DNA of 64,000 bases from an uncultured Chthoniobacter sp. (GCA_964609925.1 CAZSUJ010000002.1:8251-72250); one strand, 5' to 3'; numbered from the stretch's first letter, positions 22,651 through 42,672 are shown. Notes: generated by a model not told the origin, from the letters alone. A program made the numbers and translations.

Positions 22651-32286
<9,636 letters not shown>

Positions 32287-32322
32287 AACTTGGCGGGGCT
32301 GCCGGGGCGCGCCCCGGTGACG

Positions 32323-32514
32323 TCAGACGGATTCGCGCACACTGCGGGGACGCATGTCGGTCCAGACCGCCGCGACGTGTTCCAGGCACTTCTCCTTCGT
32401 CCCGCGCGTGCCCTCGGCCTTCCAACCGGAGGGCGGGGTCTTGTCCGCGAACCAGATCGAGTATTGCCCCTCCTCATTGACAACCACTTGGTGTTCGGTG
32501 ACGGCTTCTTGCAT
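32323..32514 (-). CDS. MbtH-like protein
   Basis: 63 aa. VVVNEEGQYSIWFADKTPPSGWK matches the MbtH N-x-E-x-Q-x-S-x-W...P-x-G-W signature. 36 nt upstream of the NRPS. Confidence 0.9.
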   Translation of the reverse strand: MQEAVTEHQVVVNEEGQYSIWFADKTPPSGWKAEGTRGTKEKCLEHVAAVWTDMRPRSVRESV

Positions 32515-32709
32515 GCGGTGATTGGTTGCGGGTCGGCTTCCGCGCCGACCGGCGGTTGGTGCGCTGCGGGCTCACAGCCCCCGGTTTCTGTTGATCTCCC
32601 CCACGGGAAAGTTGTCCCGGACCGACTGGCGCCTCCCTTCGGGCACAGCCAATCCGCGGGCTGTGACCTTTGCCACACGACACTGTGCGAGGCAAGGGCA
32701 AATCCCTCC

Positions 32710-33639
32710 TCACGCCCGTGGCGACGGCAGCCCGAGGAACTCGGAAAGCACGGCCCCCGCGCGCGCGGGGAAGTTGGCCAGCACATCGGCATGGTCCTGA
32801 TGCGCGAGGTGCTCGTGGCGCGCCATCACCTGATGGCTTCGCAACTGCCGGACAAAATCCGCTCCCATCGCCCGGCTGAAGTCGCTGGGGCGTCCGGACT
32901 GCAGGCCCGCCGAGAAGAGCAGGAAGCGCACCTGCTGCATCCAAGGCCCGAGATGCGCGGAAGGTGACACGCCCAACTGCGCTGCCTCGCTCGCACCCAT
33001 GACCTCGAGAGCCGCGTCGAGCCGTTGACCCAATGCCGAAGCCCCCGCCGCCTGCCGCCGCAAGTGGGCGATGGCCTGCGGCACGTCGTAAAAGGGAACG
33101 TCCAACCCGGCGAACGCCGCCACGCAGCCCTCGGGCAGCCGGTGCCGCTCGTGCAGTTCCTTCTTCACCGTGACCAGTGCGCCGAGATGTGCCCCGGACG
33201 AATACCCCACGAGCAGAAACCCGCCCGAGGCGGCGCCGAACTTCCGTCCGTTCACCGTGAGCCACTTGAGCGCCTTGGCGATGTCATCCGTCATCTCCCC
33301 CACCCCCGCATCGTCGCTTCCAAAGAGCCGGAAATTGACGGAGACGAAGACGAACCCGCGCTCGACAAACCACGACGGCACCCGCTCGGCCGCCCCGGTG
33401 AAGCAAGCCTTGTCGCCTCCCCGCCAATTTCCGCCGTGCAGAAAAACCGCGACGGGACGCTTACCCGAGATGACGCTCCGCGAAGCGTAGTAGATATCGA
33501 GCGTGTTGAGCGCCTGGCTGTATCCCTCGGCCTCGCGGTAAGCCAAATCCCTCTCCACCCGCAGCGCCGGAGCAGGCTCCCGACGCGTCGGCAAGACCAG
33601 CCCGGTCGGGCGGGGATCGCGAGGGCGGCCGGGCAACAT
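32710..33639 (-). CDS. alpha/beta hydrolase (esterase/lipase, fold-3-like)
   Basis: VAVFLHGGNWRGG oxyanion-type motif and GYSSGA nucleophile elbow. Confidence 0.75.
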   Translation of the reverse strand: MLPGRPRDPRPTGLVLPTRREPAPALRVERDLAYREAEGYSQALNTLDIYYASRSVISGKRPVAVFLHGGNWRGGDKACFTGAAERVPSWFVERGFVFVSVNFRLFGSDDAGVGEMTDDIAKALKWLTVNGRKFGAASGGFLLVGYSSGAHLGALVTVKKELHERHRLPEGCVAAFAGLDVPFYDVPQAIAHLRRQAAGASALGQRLDAALEVMGASEAAQLGVSPSAHLGPWMQQVRFLLFSAGLQSGRPSDFSRAMGADFVRQLRSHQVMARHEHLAHQDHADVLANFPARAGAVLSEFLGLPSPRA

Positions 33640-33702
33640 CGCGGGAACATGGACGCTCCCGGCCCGATTGACAACCCCAGCGCGAAGTTTGTTCCGCGCT
33701 TG

Positions 33703-34104
33703 CTACCGCGGCTCGATCACCTTCAGACCGTGGAAGTAGTCCCGGTAGTAGCCGCGATCTCGCGCCAGCAAGCGGTCAGCATGGCAAAAGGCATGGGCAC
33801 CAATCAGGAAGTCGGGCAGCACCCGCCGCGCCCCCCCGGATCGCGCGAGATACGCGGCAAACATGGCGCCCGCCAGTTCGGCCGATTCCTGCGAGGAGGC
33901 CACGAACTCGATGTGCCAGTCGGACATGAACTCCCCGAGCAGACCGCCCGGCAAAGCCGGGACCACCTCGGCCAGCACAGATTCCCCGATGACCAAAGCC
34001 CCCGCTTGCATCGCCTCCGACAAAGCCAGACCCGACCGCGTCGCCCAAGCCCTGTCGTCCACGATGACATCGAGCAGAACGCTCGTATCCAGCGCCGTCC
34101 TCAT
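33703..34104 (-). CDS. vapC: PIN-domain toxin (type II TA)
   Basis: 133 aa. N-terminal LDTSVLLD acidic PIN motif. 4-nt overlap with the upstream antitoxin gene. Confidence 0.85.
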   Translation of the reverse strand: MRTALDTSVLLDVIVDDRAWATRSGLALSEAMQAGALVIGESVLAEVVPALPGGLLGEFMSDWHIEFVASSQESAELAGAMFAAYLARSGGARRVLPDFLIGAHAFCHADRLLARDRGYYRDYFHGLKVIEPR

Positions 34105-34331
34105 TCGCCGTCCCGAACCCTCCGGAGGTAACCATCCACATCAGTCCCCGCGCCGGGCAAAGCCCCGCGCCCCCTCCACTTCTCCAGCGGGCTTTGCGCC
34201 AGCACCTTGGTCACCACCAAGCGCCCTCCCTCCTCGCGAAAATCCAGCCGGCTCCCCGTCCTGAGCCCCAAAGCCTCCCGCAGTGCTTTCGGAATCGTCA
34301 CCTGCCCCTTCTCTGACAGAGTCGCTTTCAT
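34101..34331 (-). CDS. vapB: AbrB/SpoVT-family antitoxin
   Basis: 76 aa. KGQVTIPKALREALGL swapped-hairpin AbrB motif. Overlaps vapC (ATGA-type junction). Confidence 0.85.
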   Translation of the reverse strand: MKATLSEKGQVTIPKALREALGLRTGSRLDFREEGGRLVVTKVLAQSPLEKWRGRGALPGAGTDVDGYLRRVRDGE

Positions 34332-35263
34332 ACTTGAATTGTAGCTTTTCTTACAACGAAGTAAAGAAACTCAACTACTCCGAGGGAACCATCGACGGCC
34401 GACGGGATGCCATTCGGGTCTTCCTGCGGTGGTGTGCCCAAAGAACTCTGCTCCGCCCGGCCGAGATCAGCCCATGCACCCTCGAAGCCTATCAAGGCTG
34501 GCTCTGGCAATACACCAAGTCCGATGGCAGCCGACTGAGTTCGAGCACGCAGCGCCAGCGGATCGGAACCCTCAAAGACTGGTTTCGCTGGATGACCAAG
34601 CGCCAGATCATCTCCACCGACCCGGCTTGCGACCTCCGACTTCCCCGGATGGAGACGCGGCTTCCAGCCTCCGCGCTGACCTCTGCCGAGGTTCAGAAAC
34701 TGCTGCGGGTTCCAAAGACAAGAAGCCCGCTTGGCATCCGAGACAGAGCAATCCTGGAGGTCCTCTACGCCAGCGGAGTCCGCCGGGCGGAGGTATGCCG
34801 GCTCGGGCTGACCGACTTAGATTTCGAGCGCCGGACTCTTCGCATCCGCCGCGGCAAAGGCCGCAAGGACCGCGTCGTCCCCATGGGCGAACGGGCCATC
34901 TGGTGGCTTCGCCGTTACCTCGCCGAAGTCCGTCCACGCCTCTGTCTGGATGAGCTTGAGGAGACGGTGTTCCTCGCAGAACGCGGCCACCCCTTCAACC
35001 ACGACGTCCTCTCACACATGGTTACCGCGATGCTGGCGGCCTCCGGATTGGCCAGAAAGGGAAGTTGCCATCTTCTCCGTCACACCTGTGCGACTCACAT
35101 GCTGGAGGGTGGAGCGGACATTCGCTTCATCCAGCAGCTCTTGGGCCACGAGAAGCTGGAAACCACGGCTCTCTACACCCAGGTGACCATCACCCAGCTT
35201 CGAGAAGTTTACGCACGATGCCATCCAGCCGCCCACCTTGCCAAAGGACAGGGTGGCCCGTAG
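34283..35263 (+). CDS. tyrosine recombinase / integrase (XerC/D-like); N-terminus uncertain or truncated
   Basis: Catalytic-domain motifs: ASGVRRAEVCRL (Arg I), RGKGRKDRVVPM, HLLRHTCATHML (H-x-x-R), LLGHEKLETTALYTQV (His...Tyr). The ORF's GTG start overlaps vapB on the opposite strand. An in-frame TTG at 34334 sits just past the vapB start. Confidence 0.85.
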   Translation: MLSESSPAPSLTESLSYLNCSFSYNEVKKLNYSEGTIDGRRDAIRVFLRWCAQRTLLRPAEISPCTLEAYQGWLWQYTKSDGSRLSSSTQRQRIGTLKDWFRWMTKRQIISTDPACDLRLPRMETRLPASALTSAEVQKLLRVPKTRSPLGIRDRAILEVLYASGVRRAEVCRLGLTDLDFERRTLRIRRGKGRKDRVVPMGERAIWWLRRYLAEVRPRLCLDELEETVFLAERGHPFNHDVLSHMVTAMLAASGLARKGSCHLLRHTCATHMLEGGADIRFIQQLLGHEKLETTALYTQVTITQLREVYARCHPAAHLAKGQGGP

Positions 35264-35273
35264 CCTTTAAGCC

Positions 35274-35894
35274 GTGACCAATCCGCGCTCCGGTCGTCCA
35301 CTTCGGCTCAGAACCTCCTCAGCTTCTGGTCGCGGGTCAAGTGCCTCCGGCCGACCTCTGGCGCGGCCTTGCAGGTCGTCCCGTCGGTTGCACATCACAA
35401 GATGGCTATCTCCTGACCCCATCGGGGAGGCTGGTGGGGTCAATTTGTATGCGTATGTGGGAGGAAACTCGATTAACCAGACAGACCCTCGTGGGCTTCA
35501 GCCTGACTCGGTCTCGGCCTCGGCTGTCGGGAATTCAAGTGCTGCTGGGCAGCTTGCTAGAGAGATCCTTCGAGACATGGCAGAGCAGCAGGCTGCTCGC
35601 GCTGCGGCTGCGGCCCAGGCAGCTGCGGCAGCGGCTGCAGCAGAAGAGATCGCAGCAGGAGATACCAGATGCAACTCGCAATCGGAGGCTCAGGACAGAA
35701 AGCCGGCCGATGACAAAAAGCTTGACGACAAGGCTGCTGACAAGGCTGCTCGTGCGCGTGGCTACAAAAACGCAGAGGATGCCAAAGAGCAGAACAATGC
35801 AGTGCCGTCGGGACACTATGATTTATATCAAGGCAAAGACGGCACCATTTACATAAAACGCAAGGGAGGAGCGGGGCCTGGTGAGCCAATTTGA
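35274..35894 (+). CDS. orphan RHS C-terminal cassette 1 (core-end motif + Ala-rich linker + short tip); lacks the RHS core
   Basis: TRWLSPDPIGEAGGVNLYAYVGGNSINQTDPRGL is the RHS core-terminal PxxxxDPxGL junction. The frame opens right after a stop with only a GTG. Upstream 40 codons are Arg/Ser-rich and not RHS-like. Confidence 0.7.
   Translation: MTNPRSGRPLRLRTSSASGRGSSASGRPLARPCRSSRRLHITRWLSPDPIGEAGGVNLYAYVGGNSINQTDPRGLQPDSVSASAVGNSSAAGQLAREILRDMAEQQAARAAAAAQAAAAAAAAEEIAAGDTRCNSQSEAQDRKPADDKKLDDKAADKAARARGYKNAEDAKEQNNAVPSGHYDLYQGKDGTIYIKRKGGAGPGEPI
35398..35419 (+). repeat. 22-nt RHS-junction core, copy 1 (CAAGATGGCTATCTCCTGACCC)
   Basis: Read directly. 21/22 identical to copy 2. Encodes RWLSPDP. 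Confidence 0.85.
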
Positions 35895-35896
35895 TT

Positions 35897-36304
35897 ATGG
35901 AGACTGACACGCAAGGCCGGATTTCTGCTTGCCTTTGGCTTAGCAGCCCAATAGCTCACCCCTCGGTGTTGTCCCGGAAGCTTCAGCAGGAACCTACTGC
36001 ATTCCAGATTAAGGGAGAATTAAAGCCGAACGGCAAGACCCTGTATACAAACTATTCCTGGAAACTTGAATTTGGAACATACTCTGATGGAAAGACAGAG
36101 GATGCGATCGAACATGCGCTCGCATTCGTGCGAGAGCGTCGAGAAGTTATGCGGAGTCTTGCCATCGAGCACGAGTGTTCATCTTACATCTCCATTGTTG
36201 CGTATAAATCGCATTACCATATTGGTCTTGTGCTTAGCGCTGATCACATTCAGGTGCTGAATGAGGCAATGGTAGGCTTTAATGTGAGTATTTACTCTGT
36301 GTGA
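35897..36304 (+). CDS. putative cognate immunity protein 1 (DUF4279-like pattern, recalled not verified)
   Basis: ATG 3 nt after the cassette-1 stop. Lower-GC codons. 135 aa. Layout ISACLWLSS...PT..QIKGE...W.L... resembles DUF4279-type proteins. Confidence 0.55.
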   Translation: METDTQGRISACLWLSSPIAHPSVLSRKLQQEPTAFQIKGELKPNGKTLYTNYSWKLEFGTYSDGKTEDAIEHALAFVRERREVMRSLAIEHECSSYISIVAYKSHYHIGLVLSADHIQVLNEAMVGFNVSIYSV

Positions 36305-37201
36305 ATGAGGCAACTAGATTGCAAGCGGATGGAACATTCTGAGAGCGGGAAAAGGCGTCTTTCCACATCCGTCAACGCCGTCTCAATAGGGCACTGTGCA
36401 ACTCTGAACGGGAGCGTGGCGAGTGGGCGTGTATGTGTGCGGAGTCCAACGGAGGAGGATGCGCAGAATGTCTTCCGGGATGGCGGATGCCGGCGGAGAA
36501 GCCAAACTCGCGAACCAGCCGCCTTGCCAATGACCCAAGCGATCTATAGGCCTGCCTCCATGGCCACGCAGCATCATGGGCGAGGAATGCGGAGCCGCCC
36601 GCGGGCAGTTCATCGACATCGGGCGAGGTTTCAGGTTCGATTGCAGCGCGCTTCCAACCGCGCCCACAGCCCCGAGCTCGCAAGATGGCTATCTCCTGAT
36701 CCCATAGAACGCGTCACGGGGGAGATGCCAGAAACACTTCCAGAAGGGGCGAATCTCTATACTTACACGGCGAATAACCCAGCAAAGTGGTCGGATATTC
36801 TCGGGCTTGAGGTTCCTTCGGCGGACTCGATCAGCGCCAACCCTGGTCTTGCCGCAGCAGCAATGGCAGCCGCAGAGCAGGCGGCTGGAGGAGGTGCCGC
36901 CGCGATCAACGCGACTGCGACCGCGGCAGCGGCGGCGGCTGTTGCAGAGATGGCCGCCGGAGATTCCTCCGCGTCCAAGAACATCTCTGGGAGAATACGG
37001 CGGTGTATTTTGACTGGCTCCAATCCGAATGATGAAGATCCAGATGAGAGGAAAAAGGCTGCGGATGAGTATCGGAAGAAAGCGGAAACAGCCAGAGATC
37101 AAATAGACGCTGAGTTTCGCAGACGTCAAGCCGACTGGTTGGAAGGTAAAGGGGCACATCCCGGAAAGTTGGGTGAGTTCCGCGCAAGCTATGGAAAGTA
37201 G
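36305..37201 (+). CDS. orphan RHS C-terminal cassette 2 (RHS homology only from about 36650 onward)
   Basis: NRAHSPELARWLSPDPI...ANLYTYTANNPAKWSDILGL junction, Ala-rich linker, short charged tip. The 5' about 115 codons have no RHS character, so the real unit is a 5'-truncated fragment. Confidence 0.65.
   Translation: MRQLDCKRMEHSESGKRRLSTSVNAVSIGHCATLNGSVASGRVCVRSPTEEDAQNVFRDGGCRRRSQTREPAALPMTQAIYRPASMATQHHGRGMRSRPRAVHRHRARFQVRLQRASNRAHSPELARWLSPDPIERVTGEMPETLPEGANLYTYTANNPAKWSDILGLEVPSADSISANPGLAAAAMAAAEQAAGGGAAAINATATAAAAAAVAEMAAGDSSASKNISGRIRRCILTGSNPNDEDPDERKKAADEYRKKAETARDQIDAEFRRRQADWLEGKGAHPGKLGEFRASYGK
36681..36702 (+). repeat. 22-nt RHS-junction core, copy 2 (CAAGATGGCTATCTCCTGATCC)
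   Basis: Read directly. Homology to copy 3 extends about 30 nt further upstream (ACCGCGCC[C/T]ACAGCCCCGA[G/C]CTCG). Confidence 0.85.
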
Positions 37202-37715
37202 TCTACCCCGTTCGATTGTTCTGCGCTTTTGCCCCACGCCGGGAATTGCACTGCTTGACTATCCTATTCCGGATGTTGGCTTGGTGGTTGGAGACGGTCA
37301 GGCAAGTGATTCGCCGGGGTGCATTGCGCCTTGGGCTGCTTTTGGTGAGGTGCTCGCCCGCGATGGTCTGTTTGTCGGCTTAGGCTATGAAGTTCGCCAG
37401 ATGCACGCATACGCAAGGACATTGGTTGAGTCTGCGGGGTCTGAGGCCGCCCTTTACCTGCCTGATGATTCGGCCGACGCAGAGCCACTCTACGATACGC
37501 GAGGCCAGGCTTATGTGGAGATGCGGATCTCCCCGATTATCCCTGATCGCATCATGACGTCAGAAGGCATTGACGGCTTCTGGTTCTTGAACTCCGACAA
37601 CTCGGCCTTGATTGCATTTGGAATCTGCGATATAGACCGTCTGCTGCGAGACCATAACCTCAAACTCGGGCCCTTGCAGCCATTTGGTCCGTTTGTTCCG
37701 ATGTGGACGGAATAG
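37191..37715 (+). CDS. putative cognate immunity protein 2
   Basis: ATG (MESSLPRS) overlaps the cassette-2 stop by 11 nt. 174 aa. No recognisable family. Lower GC than the host genes. Confidence 0.5.
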   Translation: MESSLPRSIVLRFCPTPGIALLDYPIPDVGLVVGDGQASDSPGCIAPWAAFGEVLARDGLFVGLGYEVRQMHAYARTLVESAGSEAALYLPDDSADAEPLYDTRGQAYVEMRISPIIPDRIMTSEGIDGFWFLNSDNSALIAFGICDIDRLLRDHNLKLGPLQPFGPFVPMWTE

Positions 37716-37844
37716 TGCCCCTAGGACCTGCCTTTTTCCAGTCGGGAATGGGTCGAGCAACTTCTGCTTGCACTTCATCCTGCGGCGGCTAGCAATGCAG
37801 CGAGCCATGGAGCGCCGAAGTCGCATTGCCCGCCTTCTCAAGCA

Positions 37845-37852
37845 CCGCTTCC
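37845..37852. repeat. IS66 target-site duplication, left copy (CCGCTTCC)
   Basis: Read directly: 8 bp immediately outside IR-L, identical to 40348..40355. Confidence 0.9.
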
Positions 37853-37936
37853 GTAAGCGTTCCGCCAAGCACCCCCTTGACGAGATCGGGGTGAGGAGTT
37901 CGTAAACGTCGTAGACGTGATGAATGACGCCTATGA

Positions 37937-39559
37937 TCAGGCGGCGTGGGGTGCTTGGCGCTGGCGGTTTTTGAGCCAGTTCTCCGGGGTGAGCTGGTCC
38001 ACGGTCTTGTTGGTGTGCCGAGGGATGTGGGTCAGGACGTCCTTGATGTAATCGAAGGGGTTGATGCCCAGGCGGCGGCAGGCTTCGACGATGGTGAAGA
38101 GGATCGCGCTGCGCTGGCCGCATTCGGCGTGGCCGATGAAGAGCCAGTTCTTCTTGCCCACGGCCGTGGGACGGATGGCATTTTCGACCAGGTTGTTGTC
38201 GATCTCGACGCGGCCGTCTTGGAGGTAGCGCACGAGCAGGTCCCACTGGCCCAGAGTGTAGTCGATGGCTTGGCCCATGGAGCTGGCCGGGAGGTGGGCC
38301 CCGGAGGCCTTCCAAGCGGTCAAGACGCGATGGATACGATGGAGGATAGGAGCGGCGTGGCTGGCACGCTGGGCCGCCCGCAGCTTCGGGCCGGTTCCCG
38401 CCTCACGCATCTGCTGCTCGAGGTGATAGAGCTTGGCGATCTGGCGCAGGATCCATGTGGCCCGCAGGGGCACGTGCTCGCGGGCTTCGTGGAACCGCCG
38501 CCGGGCGTGGGCCCAGCAGCCGACGAGTTCGATGCATGGCTTCTCCCGGGCAAAGCTCGGGTAGGCCGCGTAGCCGTCGCACTGCACCTTGCCGCGGAAG
38601 TCGGCCGGCACGACATGGGCAAGGCAGGCTGCGGCACGGCTCGTTTCCCAGTGGAAGAAGGTGTGACCGCCTGGCGCATGCGCCGTCCACAGGTAGCCGG
38701 TCTTGGTTTTGCCTCCCCCGGGGTCGAGGTAGCGCACGGGTGTCTCGTCGAGTTGGACGTAACCACCGCCCATGACCCCGGTGCGGATGCTTTGGTAGAT
38801 GGGTTGCAGCCAGTCGGCCGCCAGTCCCATCCATCGCGCCAGACTGGCCCGCGGCAACTCGACTTGGTGGCGCCGGCGGAAGATGTCCTCTTGGCGGTAG
38901 AGCGGAAGGTGATCGACGTATTTGCCCACGATGATGGCGGCCAGCAGTCCGGGTGCCGCCGTGCAGCGCTCCTGCAGCGAGGCGGGCAGCGCCGCCACCA
39001 CCGGCACCTCCATGCGCCGCCGGCGGTGGACGTATTTGCGCCGGATCAATCGCCGGCGCAGGAACCTCGCCGGCTCGAAGTCGAGTTGCTCGCTGACCTC
39101 CGCCCCGATCAGCCGGTAGTCGTCCGGAGCGGCCTGCACCTCGGCGGGGTCGATGACTTCCTCCACCAACGGAAGATCCTGGGGCCAGCGTTCCCGCCGG
39201 CTCCGCCGCGCCTTGAGCTCAACCTCCTGGCTTTTGGGCGGATCGGCCTCCTGCAGAGAGGAGGCCCCGACTTTTCCCGAGTCGCTCGCGGGCAACTCCA
39301 GCAAGAGCAACTGCAGTTGGTTGGGGTCGAGCTTCTCGCTGCTCACACCGAAGAGCTTGCGCACCAGCGCATCCACCTTCTGCTCCATCAAACGCAGCCG
39401 CTGCGTCAGCTGCTCGTTCTCCCGCCGCAGCCGCACGTTGTCCTCATCCCGCTTCCTAAGCTCTTCGAGCAACTGCTCCTTGCTTAAGCTTTCCACGTCG
39501 CCATGAGGTAGCAACTTGCATGCCAGTCCCGCCCACTCATCCCTTCTCCTCACGCTCAT
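37937..39559 (-). CDS. tnpC: IS66 transposase TnpC
   Basis: 540 aa. N-terminal leucine-zipper-like region, DETPVRYL, GYLWTAHAP, CWAHARRRFHEA, NLVENAIRP motifs typical of IS66 DDE transposases. Confidence 0.93.
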   Translation of the reverse strand: MSVRRRDEWAGLACKLLPHGDVESLSKEQLLEELRKRDEDNVRLRRENEQLTQRLRLMEQKVDALVRKLFGVSSEKLDPNQLQLLLLELPASDSGKVGASSLQEADPPKSQEVELKARRSRRERWPQDLPLVEEVIDPAEVQAAPDDYRLIGAEVSEQLDFEPARFLRRRLIRRKYVHRRRRMEVPVVAALPASLQERCTAAPGLLAAIIVGKYVDHLPLYRQEDIFRRRHQVELPRASLARWMGLAADWLQPIYQSIRTGVMGGGYVQLDETPVRYLDPGGGKTKTGYLWTAHAPGGHTFFHWETSRAAACLAHVVPADFRGKVQCDGYAAYPSFAREKPCIELVGCWAHARRRFHEAREHVPLRATWILRQIAKLYHLEQQMREAGTGPKLRAAQRASHAAPILHRIHRVLTAWKASGAHLPASSMGQAIDYTLGQWDLLVRYLQDGRVEIDNNLVENAIRPTAVGKKNWLFIGHAECGQRSAILFTIVEACRRLGINPFDYIKDVLTHIPRHTNKTVDQLTPENWLKNRQRQAPHAA

Positions 39560-39896
39560 ACCACGGCCGCAGCTTCGCCCCCCGCAGATCGATCCCGTCG
39601 GTCAGCATCGCCAACGCCTCCGGCCTCAACCTCAATGTCTTCTTGCCCTCGGTGTCCCGCGGCCACGAAAACGTCCCCGCCTCCAACCTCTTGCTCAACA
39701 GCCACAACCCCGTCCCGTCAAAATAGAGCATCTTCAACCGCGTCCGCCTCCGGTTGCCGAAGACAAAGAGCGCCCCGCTCTGCACCTGCTCCTTCATCAC
39801 CGTGCCCACCATCCCCGCCAACCCCTCGAACCCCTTGCGCATGTCGCAGGGCTCCAGGGCCACGAACACCCGCACCGTGCCCGCAAAACTCAGCAC
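39537..39896 (-). CDS. tnpB: IS66 Orf2 (TnpB)
   Basis: VFVALEPCDMRKGFEGLAGMV ... LFVFGNRRRTRLKMLYFDGTGLWLLSKRLE is the IS66 Orf2 signature. GTG start in a GTGCTGA overlap with the tnpA stop. The 195-aa ORF call over-extends upstream. Confidence 0.9.
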   Translation of the reverse strand: MLSFAGTVRVFVALEPCDMRKGFEGLAGMVGTVMKEQVQSGALFVFGNRRRTRLKMLYFDGTGLWLLSKRLEAGTFSWPRDTEGKKTLRLRPEALAMLTDGIDLRGAKLRPWYEREEKG

Positions 39897-40288
39897 CCCG
39901 CCACCCCCATCGCCCGCAGCATCTCCCCGACCCACCGCGCCTGTTGACCATTGACCACTTCCACCCTCACCGCTGCGCCAATTTGCACTCGCATCCCGCG
40001 GCCTGAGGGTGCCGTTCCCATCGGCTCCGACTCCGCCACGGCTTCCACCCACCGCACCGGCGCTTGCCCTGCCGGCGCCGACGCCACCGCGGCCTGACCC
40101 TTGCGCCGCTGCTGCACCCACCAAGCCAAAGTCGGATACTTCACCCCCACCATCGCCGCAAACGCCACCCCACTCATCCCGCTCTTCTCATACTCATCGA
40201 CGATCTCCTCCCGCTTTTCCCGCGGCGTCCTCACTCGCCCTCGTGCATCCTGCACCAATATCTTCCCAATAACTGCCGTATCCGTCAT
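39890..40288 (-). CDS. tnpA: IS66 Orf1 (TnpA, HTH)
   Basis: 132 aa. REKREEIVDEYEKSGMSGVAFAAMVGVKYPTLAWWVQQRRK helix-turn-helix region typical of IS66 orf1. Confidence 0.85.
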   Translation of the reverse strand: MTDTAVIGKILVQDARGRVRTPREKREEIVDEYEKSGMSGVAFAAMVGVKYPTLAWWVQQRRKGQAAVASAPAGQAPVRWVEAVAESEPMGTAPSGRGMRVQIGAAVRVEVVNGQQARWVGEMLRAMGVAGC

Positions 40289-40347
40289 AGCCCCACGCTA
40301 TGACACTTACGCCACCTACGATAGGGGGTGCTCGGTGGAACGCTTAC

Positions 40348-40355
40348 CCGCTTCC
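40348..40355. repeat. IS66 target-site duplication, right copy (CCGCTTCC)
   Basis: Read directly: 8 bp immediately outside IR-R. It lies 3 nt from the stop codon (40359-40361) of the Sel1 immunity gene. Confidence 0.9.
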
Positions 40356-40358
40356 TGT

Positions 40359-40805
40359 TCAGTCTCCGTTGGAAGTCGGCCTGTATTCGCTCAGGTATCT
40401 TCTCAACAACTCATCTCCGGCCGAATACCCATCCGTTTTGGCTTGAATCATCCAAGCCAGACCTTGTTGAGGATCTTTACCCTCATCGATCATGGCTTTA
40501 CCATAATTGAATGCTGCATATGGCACACCCCGTTCTGCGAGCCACTTTAGCCAGTAGTTGCCTTTTGTAGTGTTAGCCTGTTCTCCGGCAAAAGTGTAAT
40601 GCCGATAGAGCCTTTCTCCCGCCGATACATCTCCCGCTCTAGCAGCCATTTCTGCTTCCCGAATCTGGGACGGCGTCAGCGCCTTCTCGCCGCTCATATG
40701 CACCCACCCAGGTGATGTGCTGACTTTAGGGCTGACGCATCCTGGATGGACTAGCATGGCAAAAGCATAAAGCAAGCTTTGGCCGGCAGAAGCGAGAACT
40801 CTCAT
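40359..40805 (-). CDS. Sel1-repeat lipoprotein, putative immunity protein for the upstream RHS tip
   Basis: MRVLASAGQSLLYAFAMLVHPGC lipobox-like signal, then Sel1/TPR-like repeats (YWLKWLAERGVPYAAFNYGKAMI...). Its ATG overlaps the RHS stop as ATGA (40802-40805). Confidence 0.65.
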   Translation of the reverse strand: MRVLASAGQSLLYAFAMLVHPGCVSPKVSTSPGWVHMSGEKALTPSQIREAEMAARAGDVSAGERLYRHYTFAGEQANTTKGNYWLKWLAERGVPYAAFNYGKAMIDEGKDPQQGLAWMIQAKTDGYSAGDELLRRYLSEYRPTSNGD

Positions 40806-42349
40806 CTTGGATAAAATGTCTCCCAACCTGGATTCCCCTTGGGGCTTTGGCCCGCAGGCACAACTGGGTTGTTTCCCACACGAGTATTGCCGCTGTTGTC
40901 GATTATGATGTCGCCGCGCGGGGCAGTGACGGGAGCCCCCAACAGATTTGCCAACTTTTGGCCAAAAGATCTCTCTCCGCCCATGCCTGTTCTACAAGCC
41001 AGCAAAGTTACTCCCTGCCCATTACCATAAGCGGGGTCGTTCATAATGTCGTTGGCCACATCCTTGGGCGTTTGAGCCGGGCCCTCACCTTTCTCCGGAG
41101 CATTCGTGTCATCGAAAATGCGGTCCCCCTTCGGAGCGCGCCCATGCCCACCATAATCATAATCTGGTGTCTGGAAGGCATCGGACCAGTTGTGAATGGG
41201 GTCATTTGGAGAGAAATTGTTTGAATCCAGCAAGCCCAGCGGATCCCAAAGATTCACCGGACTATTGTCTACATAGGCATATAGATTTACTCCACCAGCT
41301 TCCTTTATTGGATCAGGAAATAGCCATCTTGCGAGGTCGGGGCTGTAGGCGCGGTAAAGGGTGAGGTGTAGGCCGGTCGGCGCGTGGTGGTAGTGGCCGG
41401 TGTAGAGCATGTCGGAGCGGAAGTCCCCTTGGCTCCACACGAACGGGCTGGCACTCCATGCGCCATCGTATCGCATCGTGGTTGCCCCGGCCGGCACCTC
41501 GTCGTCGCACCAAACCTGATCCCCTCCTCCACCTGCCGCCCGTTTGCCCATCCGGTCCCACTTGGCCGCACCCCCGTAAAGCGTGAAGCTCACTCCGTTG
41601 AGCGTCTTGCCTTCAAGTCCGACCGCGCTGGCGGGCACTTCCAGCCTCACCCACCTGCCGGTGTCCGGCAGTGCTCCCATCGAGCGGCGGCTGTCAGTCC
41701 CATCGGTGCCTAGAGCGATGTAGTTCGCCCCCCAGTAGGCGCGATGTTCCCAGCTGCTACCGACGCGAAACTGCAGCATGACCTGATCAGGAGCTACAGC
41801 CGCATCCAGATACACGTAGGCCACCAACGTGTCCCCCGTGTTCACGGCCAAGGTTGCGCTGGCCCCATAAAACATCCGCTGGTGCTCGCCCGCCTGGTTT
41901 TCCACTTCCCACACCCTCGATCCATGCGAGGTCACCCTACCATACGGGTCGTAACCATACCTCTCCCTGTCCACCCCTTGCCCATCTACCACTTCCCGGA
42001 TGCTGCCGAGATGATCCTTCGCATAGAAGTAGTTGAGGGTTGAGGGCTGAGCGTTGACGGTAAAACCATCGGCGAAATACCGCCTCACCACGCCGTTGGT
42101 TCCATCGCGTTGCTCGGCAATATCCAGACCGTCATAAACAAGCTGCCGGGTGCTCGTGACCGTGCCGCCACTGTCTTTTTGACTCCGCTTCCGTCCCGGC
42201 AGCCTGTCGCCCTCCGGGTTCGCCGCCGGCGAATCTACCGCGGCATTGCCGGCATGCCTTGCGTCCACGATCTTCACCCGAGGCTGTGGGACCGTCTTCA
42301 CCTCACTGCTCCCTATCGCCACCGGCACTAGGTCGTCAAGCAGGCCCAT
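40802..42349 (-). CDS. RHS-repeat protein fragment (last YD repeats + inserted beta-rich module + core-end motif + C-terminal tip); N-terminally truncated
   Basis: YD repeats (YFYAKDHLGSIREVVD, YGYDPYGRV) and the junction YRAYSPDLARWLFPDPIKEAGGVNLYAYVDNSPVNLWDPLGL. Only 515 aa. The upstream frame closes with a stop at 42392-42394, and the upstream sequence is not RHS-like. Confidence 0.8.
   Translation of the reverse strand: MGLLDDLVPVAIGSSEVKTVPQPRVKIVDARHAGNAAVDSPAANPEGDRLPGRKRSQKDSGGTVTSTRQLVYDGLDIAEQRDGTNGVVRRYFADGFTVNAQPSTLNYFYAKDHLGSIREVVDGQGVDRERYGYDPYGRVTSHGSRVWEVENQAGEHQRMFYGASATLAVNTGDTLVAYVYLDAAVAPDQVMLQFRVGSSWEHRAYWGANYIALGTDGTDSRRSMGALPDTGRWVRLEVPASAVGLEGKTLNGVSFTLYGGAAKWDRMGKRAAGGGGDQVWCDDEVPAGATTMRYDGAWSASPFVWSQGDFRSDMLYTGHYHHAPTGLHLTLYRAYSPDLARWLFPDPIKEAGGVNLYAYVDNSPVNLWDPLGLLDSNNFSPNDPIHNWSDAFQTPDYDYGGHGRAPKGDRIFDDTNAPEKGEGPAQTPKDVANDIMNDPAYGNGQGVTLLACRTGMGGERSFGQKLANLLGAPVTAPRGDIIIDNSGNTRVGNNPVVPAGQSPKGNPGWETFYPR
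41310..41331 (-). repeat. 22-nt RHS-junction core, copy 3, inverted relative to copies 1 and 2 (CAAGATGGCTATTTCCTGATCC on minus strand)
   Basis: Read directly as the reverse complement of GGATCAGGAAATAGCCATCTTG. 21/22 identical to copy 2. Confidence 0.85.
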
Positions 42350-42541
42350 GAATCCCCTTCCCCGACCGAGCGCAGCGCGTGATCTGGCTGGCTACATCGA
42401 ACGCCGCATACAACCGACTGCTGACCCATCAGATGTCCTCTTTCATGTGCCGCGCCTGCGCCCTCCCCCCGGGCGGTATTTGCACATGGGGTGCCGGTCT
42501 GAGCCGCAGTTCCGGCCCATTCCCGCCCGCAGCGAAAATCA

Positions 42542-42570
42542 TTGCAGGAAAAGGCTCGTCACGCTTTATT
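42542..42570 (+). promoter_or_regulatory. candidate sigma70-type promoter for tRNA-Val (TTGCAG-N17-TTTATT)
   Basis: -35-like TTGCAG at 42542-42547, 17-nt spacer, -10-like TTTATT at 42565-42570, 27 nt upstream of the tRNA 5' end. Confidence 0.4.
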
Positions 42571-42597
42571 TCGCGGTTGCCCTAGATGGCGACCCAT

Positions 42598-42672
42598 GCG
42601 CGGTTAGCTCAGTGGTAGAGCACCTCCTTGACACGGAGGGGGTCAGAGGTTCGAACCCTCTATCGCGCACCA
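42598..42672 (+). tRNA. tRNA-Val (anticodon GAC), CCA encoded
   Basis: Manual cloverleaf: acceptor GCGCGGT/ATCGCGC; D-arm GCTC-AGTGGTA-GAGC; anticodon arm CCTCC-TTGACAC-GGAGG; variable GGGTC; T-arm AGAGG-TTCGAAC-CCTCT; discriminator A + CCA. Followed by a T-run. Confidence 0.92.

Follow-up and report, generated by a model that had tools for sequence, protein, structure and literature searches.

Fragments of rhs toxin genes form a small island in the genome of an uncultured Chthoniobacter sp., together with a gene for a tyrosine recombinase of the XerC/D type. The island lies in a stretch of 64,000 nucleotides (nt) (GCA_964609925.1 CAZSUJ010000002.1:8251-72250) that was analysed at its full length and is called the window below. 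A 22-nt sequence, CAAGATGGCTATYTCCTGAYCC, was found three times by a scan of the window, at 35398-35419 (+), 36681-36702 (+) and 41310-41331 (-), and these copies are referred to as J1, J2 and J3. A first-pass annotation had read them as the sites of a shufflon-like switch, in which inversion exchanges toxin tips. We propose that the 22-mer is probably the core of an attachment (att) site used by a family of XerC/D-like integrases, and that the window holds a decayed insertion relic, not a working flip switch. The argument draws on the architecture of this family, its circular and inserted forms, the relations among its att sites, the position of crossover, the truncations of the window genes and the absence of the island from sister strains, all documented by sequence comparison. 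The interest of the finding lies in the family-level mechanism of insertion rather than in the inversion proposed earlier.

The repeat is a real pattern and not a product of chance. No copy is expected from shuffled controls (0 copies, 100 shuffles), no fourth site appears in the window when the tolerance is raised to 3 mismatches or fewer, and pairwise comparison gives 21/22, 21/22 and 20/22 identical positions, exactly as the first-pass annotation had counted. Read in frame, CA AGA TGG CTA TCT CCT GAY CC encodes (A/T)-R-W-L-(S/F)-P-D-P. All three copies fall within the RHS core domain TIGR03696 (NCBIfam), about 28 codons 5' of the DPxGL motif, and therefore near the boundary between core and tip but not on it; tip-specific sequence begins only about 62 nt past the start of the 22-mer. 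The minus-strand copy belongs, as had been claimed, to a 515-aa RHS fragment (RHS515), but its supposed place exactly at the core/tip boundary has to be corrected to one inside the core domain. Similarity also extends outside the 22-mer. J2 and J3 share a block of 50 nt at 92% identity (36657-36706 and 41355-41306), which agrees with the 30 or so additional upstream nt seen before, whereas the flanks are not as divergent as was stated, J1 and J3 being 79% identical across 67 nt. The longest perfect match of the inverted pair J2/J3 is 16 nt.

Across 185,579 species-representative genomes, the exact 22-mer has a single match, a chance occurrence in a non-RHS gene of an Oligoflexia metagenome-assembled genome; the exact sequence is specific to the lineage of the window. 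Two related islands, described below, add three junctions with the 22-mer at 20-22/22. Among the six junctions of the three islands the 22-mer is kept at 20-22/22, its Leu codon is always CTA, and all six tips are different. In these six junctions the 40 nt that follow the 22-mer on its right cluster by cassette and not by core.

Relatives of the window recombinase number in the thousands; they are about 349 aa long, show 60-64% identity and come mostly from short metagenomic contigs. Judged by the source names of the nearest database proteins, the organism of the window probably belongs to the Verrucomicrobiota. Two relatives, P0004 and P0094, were examined in their contigs, and a metagenome scan supplied another 80 loci. 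The integrase belongs to a module composed, in order, of a CI-like helix-turn-helix (HTH) repressor gene on the minus strand, a gene for a DnaG/Toprim primase of about 1,000 aa, the integrase gene and often a HicB/HicA pair; an ORF6N anti-repressor at times stands beside the repressor, and PHROGs assignments agree with this annotation. The elements are 7.5-10 kb long, and their distal end is formed by a promoterless RHS tip and an immunity gene. Counting loci with at least 600 nt of downstream sequence and searching 3 kb after the integrase, we found an RHS junction in 17/18 close relatives (at least 56% identity to P0004) and in 22/47 distant ones, while a primase gene lies directly 5' of the integrase in 11/13 and 35/36, respectively. 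Across the 80 related loci every junction found is co-oriented with its integrase, none being inverted. The chloroplast rhs, primase and integrase genes of Bryopsidales (PMC4487195) were considered as a lead and proved unrelated.

Inserted and circular forms of one element were recovered from different samples. In L005 and L006 the element sits within an rhs gene. Its left junction, ...LYRAYDPVTGRW|LSRDPIGEEGG..., is followed by tip A and immunity gene A and then by the element; the right junction, past the integrase and HicBA genes, reads ...AYKTASGRARW|LSRDPIGEEGG... and continues into a different tip B with immunity gene B. Contigs L008, L009 and L010, from three other samples, are circular permutations of L005 1177-9503 (8,327 bp); they match it at 99.8-100% identity, and their ends overlap by 198, 130 and 127 nt. 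In each of them the joint combines the left side of attR with the right side of attL, and so has the composition of attP. Elements also occur in tandem. Mini-elements of about 4 kb (L024 499-4423; L031 846-5212), which consist of repressor, integrase, tip and immunity gene only and have no primase, stand in tandem between element-type junctions; full elements do so in L044 (442-15401, period 7.47 kb, 99.95% identity), and L077 holds tandem arrays as well. These tandem mini-elements and full elements suggest serial insertion at a regenerated junction.

Comparison of att sites locates the crossover. The repeats common to attL and attR all start at a Trp codon and span 66 nt in L005, 11 nt in L018 (TGGCCAAATCG) and 8 nt in L022 (TGGCTATC). 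Because they can be as short as 8-11 nt from TGG, strand exchange falls inside these 8-11 nt, and this interval corresponds to positions 6-16 of the window 22-mer (CAAGA|TGGCTATCTCC|TGACCC). Element-side arms, found by protein motif alone, carry TCGGGT at the same offset in 15/15 cases, and 20 distinct sites share the sequence TAC(A/G)AAACCG(Y)(R)TCGGGT. The left arm of the family can be written ..ACCG(Y)(R)TCGGGTCGG, with TCGGGT separated by 9 nt from TGG. An inverted repeat, ATCGGGTC-N20-GACCCGAT, is made up of the outer 8-mers and centred on TG|GC, the right GACCCGAT being coding. The Leu codon after Trp is CTA in 10/11 and TTA in 1/11 sites, so its third base is A in 11/11; this exclusive use of CTA and TTA indicates a constraint acting on the site at the nucleotide level. 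The earlier suggestion that the repeat is tied to the neighbouring tyrosine recombinase, beyond conservation of a peptide, finds its support in these att sites and in the codon constraint. IMG/VR contains no match to the 22-mer and none to the element-side arm; RHS-junction elements are not catalogued there as viral.

From these comparisons the following mechanism can be proposed. The attachment-site core in the 22-mer would consist of the crossover region TGGCTAT(C) and a part of the right arm (..GAYCC). The attP of an element has a pseudo-RHS left arm (..TACAAAACCGCATCGGGTCGG..), followed by genuine junction codons W-(L/P)-x-x-D-P and then by the element's own tip. Recombination of attP with the matching codons of a chromosomal rhs gene would fuse the resident core in frame to the incoming tip and its immunity gene, and the displaced tip and immunity gene would become an orphan directly 3' of the integrase. 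Applied to the window, the segment at 34.3-36.3 kb, with integrase, non-RHS arm, J1, tip 1 and immunity gene 1, would represent the attR-side layout. J2 with tip 2 and immunity gene 2 would be an older, classical orphan that was already downstream of tip 1. Opposite J1 and J2 stands the 5'-truncated RHS fragment, whose J3 would be an attB-like site that was never used.

The three copies differ in their surroundings in a way compatible with this scheme. J1 is attR-like, with non-RHS sequence on its left and an RHS junction and tip 1 on its right, and it fits the rule of the family: an RHS junction (W-L/P-x-x-D-P ... N-L-Y) lies less than 3 kb downstream of the integrase and on the same strand. 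Between the recombinase stop codon and J1 there is a non-RHS spacer of 134 nt (35264-35397 (+)), which we read as a putative degenerate element-side (P-type) left arm. At J2, which has the character of a classical orphan junction, 70 nt or more of RHS core survive on the left (36611-36680 (+), directly 5' of J2); tblastn detected this remnant by aligning RHS515 residues 319-373 with 36611-36808. The inverted J3 is attB-like, with native RHS core lying 5' and tip 3 lying 3' of it.

The recombinase gene (34283-35263 (+); gene callers start at 34334) is XerC-like and lies at the left edge of the array; the first-pass annotation, too, had noted a tyrosine recombinase gene at the array edge. Its catalytic domain is intact (PF00589 at 2.6e-44; NF002331 at 377 bits against a cutoff of 371), and the protein is 62% identical to P0004 over residues 48-349. 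It is nevertheless truncated at the 5' end: in the family alignment the conserved N-terminal 50-55 residues are absent and homology begins at LNYSEGT, so the full-length N-terminus of the family, MAGKRGIA...DALALWRDSYL, is not present in this copy. Homology to the family starts at about 34355-34372, and the breakpoint relative to the 375-aa copy in L095 lies at 34372, beside vapB.

Sister copies of this unit occur at two other sites. In L095/L096 the recombinase is about 95% identical in its coding part and occupies another chromosomal position. L095 is homologous to the window from window position 34372 onwards, across the spacer (69% identity) and then the junction block (93%), up to a point 57 nt past the Trp codon; beyond it the tip and immunity gene differ from those in the window. 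Since homology ends just past the junction, the same recombinase-junction unit bears different cassettes. A second homologous island, more compact than that of the window, was found in L101 (10001-14133; JGI 3300042946), where the RHS core is 94% and the recombinase 85% identical at the nucleotide level. The site, flanked by DJ-1/PfpI and obg, is unrelated to that of the window, and the outer ends of the island are truncated at other points; the whole N-terminal domain of its recombinase is gone and the gene abuts the host gene obg. The point of truncation of the recombinase differs in each of the three islands. The layout of L101 is convergent, like that of the window, and 74 nt of its two inverted junction blocks align at 89% identity.

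Resemblance among the copies could also come from plain coding conservation joined with homologous and illegitimate recombination; the copies would then be alike as related RHS core ends of one lineage, and the recombinase would be an unrelated passenger. The motif does encode a conserved segment of the RHS core, J2 has a classical core remnant at its left, and the literature credits displacement of rhs C-termini to homologous and illegitimate recombination (PMC8125069; PMC5361080), involvement of an integrase being stated as unproven (PMC5361080). The excess of identical synonymous codons within the 22-mer is also small: for J1 and J3 there are 3/5 inside the repeat and 5/17 in the 26 codons that follow it, for J3 and L095 5/6 and 7/21, and the counts themselves are low. 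We nevertheless regard this explanation as unlikely. The recombinase family stands beside the junction in the close and distant relatives counted above, always in one orientation, and forms exact attL, attR and attP with it. RHS homology at J1 begins abruptly at the 22-mer, 134 nt past the recombinase stop codon, and in L095 the unit carries a different tip, the junction block being 93% identical to that of the window compared with 69% for the spacer.

The inversion model can be stated as follows: the adjacent family recombinase, or one acting in trans, would invert the segment between J3 and J1 or between J3 and J2, joining tip 1 or tip 2 to the core of RHS515 and leaving tip 3 as an orphan. 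The geometry allows it, as the sites are inverted and the crossover region of the family lies within the 22-mer; the convergent layout recurs at the unrelated site of L101, the region to the right of the junction moves with the tip cassette and not with the core, and the ratio of nonsynonymous to synonymous substitution (dN/dS) in the recombinase is low. The shufflon part of the first-pass annotation nevertheless appears very improbable. The reaction of the family is insertion and excision, with 0 junctions inverted relative to the recombinase in the 80 related loci. Models of DNA invertases score far under their cutoffs on the recombinase (NF007370 75 against 221 bits, NF007371 59 against 222), as do those of integron integrases (TIGR02249 125 against 265 bits, NF011946 82 against 435). 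The recombinases of the islands are truncated at three different points. J1 and J2 are present as copies inverted relative to J3, but the gene to be switched is a 5'-truncated RHS fragment; the RHS genes have neither a full YD shell nor a delivery domain, and switching of tips would be of little use to genes in this state. The six different tips of the three islands mean that no tip is seen on both sides. Among 5.8 billion proteins none fuses the core of RHS515 to tip 1, tip 2 or any recombinase-side tip, and no full-length RHS protein carrying tip 1 is in the database, where this tip is met as an orphan open reading frame (ORF) only. Exchange by RecA in E. coli needs a minimal homology of roughly 23-27 bp, for which the longest perfect inverted match of 16 nt is short.

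Assemblies give the same picture. The first-pass annotation had named orientation polymorphism among strain assemblies as a check of its model; at the level of assemblies, and with shallow sampling, a single arrangement was found in five independent ones, the NCBI contig and Logan SRR10912415-18 being colinear and their contigs crossing J1, J2 and J3 unbranched. One observation points the other way. The Logan contig L004 ends exactly 30 nt (k-1) past the first base of J1, as would be expected of a de Bruijn branch if the 30-mer had a second left neighbour in that sample. Other low-coverage contigs of the sister runs end at arbitrary places, however, so the end of L004 may be due to chance or a break in coverage. 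L004 (SRR10912415, k=31) corresponds to 33874-35427 of the window, and its end may reflect a hybrid junction, an RHS-tip 1 gene of another strain, or chance.

Several points weigh against reading the window as a decayed insertion relic. The canonical left arm TCGGGTC is absent at J1, where the window reads ..CCGTCGGTTGCACATCACAAGA|TGG, and the nearest look-alike, TCGGTT, lies 4 nt further from the Trp codon; the attR origin of J1 is therefore deduced from the layout and from comparison with L095 rather than from a diagnostic arm. J3 has the opposite orientation to the integrase, and the same convergent layout exists in L101, which simple decay of a co-oriented insertion does not explain. No intact element of the window lineage was found, the copies in the window, L095 and L101 all being without primase, and tblastn detected no remnant of a primase or HTH repressor in these three; neither a circular form nor an attL was found for this lineage. 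The circular contigs of the relatives may be free circles or the joints of tandem dimers, two forms indistinguishable in short-read assemblies, although either would be a product of junction recombination. The attB x attP reaction of the family integrases is a prediction. Finally, dN/dS amounts to 0.075-0.12 among the integrase copies and to 0.13 among the RHS core fragments. Such low values mean that purifying selection acted over most of the divergence of integrase and RHS core, so that recent or continuing activity is possible; they can, on the other hand, date from intact progenitors, and little weight then falls on them as to the present state.

In yet another explanation the junction is a live site of general recombination, where family integrases, in cis or brought in trans by an incoming element, insert new cassettes of tip and immunity gene at any rhs junction and also invert DNA wherever two junctions face each other, as they do in the window island and in L101. 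If this were true, displacement of rhs C-termini in these bacteria would be integrase-driven and reversible instead of resting on rare illegitimate recombination, and the island would be a switchable board of toxins and immunity genes. We hold this to be quite unlikely. We return, then, to an att-site core in a decayed relic. J1 probably arose by insertion of an element in the lineage of the window, and the island seems to be recombinationally inactive at present. We infer that it persists mainly as a store of three orphan immunity genes, which would be its likely value to the cell.

The island itself is strain-specific. It covers 33676-42529 (8,854 bp) and contains all three junction copies. 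In three strains about 97% identical to that of the window (L097, L098, L099), blastn showed that the island is absent, 6 nt (TCCGGC) standing between the hydrolase gene and the gene for tRNA-Val. Apart from a loose match of TCCGGCCC, nothing convincing was found as terminal repeats of the 8.85-kb island. Insertions recur at the spot just 5' of tRNA-Val(GAC), which is a hotspot for them in this species (33640-42600; loci L097-L100): the spot is empty in the three strains mentioned, whereas JGI 3300059473 has a prophage with integrase and capsid genes there and L100 a restriction-modification gene of the MmeI type. The tRNA-Val(GAC) gene was located by ARAGORN at 42598-42672 (+), 68 nt outside the right end of the island and 250 nt 5' of RHS515. 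The window recombinase was considered as an island integrase acting at tRNA-Val and rejected in this role, since the tRNA gene has the island 5' of it, the recombinase gene stands at the end away from it, and the relatives of the enzyme use rhs junctions, not tRNA genes, as targets.

Conserved chromosome borders the island on the left in the form of a cluster at 22651-33639. It comprises a nonribosomal peptide synthetase (NRPS) gene of 3,211 aa and three modules (22651-32286 (-)) and the adjoining hydrolase gene of the BD-FAE/esterase type (32710-33639 (-)); in sister strains, gene calling places an MbtH-like gene of 63 aa between them. The 3,211-aa ORF is this NRPS; no full-length rhs gene lies within the window. 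Inside the island, a vapC-like gene for a PIN toxin (33703-34104 (-); weak match to Pfam PF01850) is followed by a vapB-like antitoxin gene of the AbrB/MazE type (34101-34331 (-); PF04014), which abuts the truncated recombinase.

The plus-strand copies J1 and J2 head two orphan tips, as the first-pass annotation had described, and each tip ORF is followed by a small ORF. Orphan tip 1 (35403-35894 (+)) contains the core end from WLSPDP to DPRGL (TIGR03696 positions 42-76) and then Ntox33 (PF15533, 3.7e-09); its presumed immunity gene (35897-36304 (+)) encodes DUF4279 (PF14106) and is called identically in Logan contigs. Orphan tip 2 (36686-37201 (+)) matches TIGR03696 profile positions 30-76 and has a toxin domain without Pfam match, while presumed immunity gene 2 is an ORF at 37173-37715 (+), 174 aa in L003, with no family match. 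The 375-nt region 5' of J2 and the spacer after immunity gene 2 show no homology to any of the fetched loci.

An insertion sequence of the IS66 family (37853-40347 (-)) with tnpA, tnpB and tnpC (PF03050, PF05717, PF13817) separates the two halves of the array. It is bounded by 24-bp terminal inverted repeats, GTAAGCGTTCC(G/A)CC(A/G)AGCACCCCC, and by a perfect 8-bp target duplication, CCGCTTCC, at 37845-37852 and 40348-40355, its insertion point being 3 nt past the stop codon of immunity gene 3. As a source of the inverted layout it was ruled out: it is a clean, late insertion with target duplication, and the convergent arrangement is consequently older than IS66. Assemblies of the same strain break inside it, which indicates that IS66 is present in several copies in the genome.

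On the far side, presumed immunity gene 3 is an ORF at 40359-40826 (-), 148 aa in L002. RHS515 (40802-42349 (-)) is a 5'-truncated RHS core fragment of 515 aa fused to tip 3 (TIGR03696 at 2.1e-20). BLASTP aligns its residues 54-373 with residues 162-481 of P0133, a protein of 627 aa, at 93% identity; residues 1-53 are unrelated. Within RHS515 the TIGR03696 core is interrupted by an insertion of about 170 aa (41420-41940 (-), residues ~138-310), which is 93% conserved in P0133. Taken alone it matches hundreds of otherwise unrelated proteins of Verrucomicrobia, Acidobacteria and other phyla at 40-68% identity, and belongs to no Pfam family.

The gain of new C-terminal toxins by rhs and other polymorphic toxins, with the trails of orphans left behind, has been put down to homologous plus illegitimate recombination; the relatives of the window recombinase offer a concrete and testable mechanism: a self-replicating mini-element whose attP mimics the end of an rhs core and whose integrase crosses over in Trp-Leu/Pro codons. 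One site-specific event would install a new toxin with its immunity gene and make an orphan of the old pair. Such a mechanism would account for ordered orphan arrays and for the tyrosine recombinase often standing at the array border, and it would be a route for horizontal spread of toxin/immunity pairs. The att sites, the integrase and the circular form are known to the nucleotide, so a reconstruction of the reaction in E. coli is within reach. Rhs-associated integrases have been noted in bee-gut bacteria, their role being given as unknown and no mechanism proposed (PMC5727410). In the literature searched, from which most subscription journals were excluded so that a prior description is possible, there is no account of primase-integrase elements with attB in an rhs junction or of integrase-driven tip replacement; the family-level mechanism, well supported by sequence, thus appears to be undescribed.

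The locus invites comparison with several known systems. Like rAID-1 of Bacteroidales, it has a recombinase followed by co-oriented orphan genes of low G+C, a layout suggestive of integron-like acquisition and a likely role as a store of immunity. rAID-1 loci are described as having a 5' XerD-like recombinase with at least 44% identity to BF9343_RS08045, arrays of at most 31 genes and conserved intergenic repeats (Ross et al. 2019, bioRxiv 10.1101/471110; PMC12247911), and close homologues of the recombinase are, according to the authors, restricted to Bacteroidales (Ross et al. 2019). At least 2 co-oriented genes of distinct G+C follow the recombinase in rAID-1; here there are four such ORFs, and G+C is 0.56-0.59 in the tip regions at 35-38 kb against about 0.67 in the flanks. 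Unlike in rAID-1, the repeat of the window is a coding RHS junction, the tips are kept, there are two cassettes only, and the recombinase family travels with a primase on circular elements; the recombinase clade described for rAID-1 would also set the two apart. No conserved non-coding intergenic repeats were found between the array genes of the window, the coding junction being the sole repeat.

With classical rhs orphan arrays the locus shares the conserved core, the variable tip with its immunity gene, the piece of core end retained on displaced tips and the gathering of orphans downstream, of which the J2 cassette would be a textbook case. Displacement of rhs C-termini and arrays of orphan tips and immunity genes are reportedly the subject of work by Jackson et al. 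in 2009, Poole et al. in 2011 and Koskiniemi et al. in 2014. Published orphans, however, lie 3' of a full-length rhs gene, whereas the window has only the convergent 515-aa fragment. In the relatives of the window recombinase, moreover, displacement would be a by-product of site-specific insertion of an element, with the orphan directly after the integrase.

The R64 shufflon, operated by Rci, and phase-variable hsdS loci are inversion switches run by tyrosine recombinases. They resemble the window in having such a recombinase beside alternative 3' segments with a short common sequence, one copy of which is inverted. The window differs from the R64 shufflon in its lack of evidence for inversion, in its truncated recombinase, in that the gene to be expressed is a fragment, and in that the sites of its relatives are co-oriented. 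Mobile integrons provide a parallel in another respect, as insertion proximal to the recombinase would shift older cassettes distally and promoterless cassettes would be expressed from the platform. The enzyme, on the other hand, is not IntI, there are no attC hairpins, and the inserting unit is a whole replicative element with its own integrase. Phage 21 and e14 insert in icd, where attP supplies a substitute 3' end and the target gene stays intact. The rhs elements likewise have their attB in a coding sequence and an attP that brings a substitute 3' end. The function of icd is preserved in that case, whereas the rhs elements would swap function, by delivering a new toxin with its immunity gene, and their target is a multi-copy mobile family.

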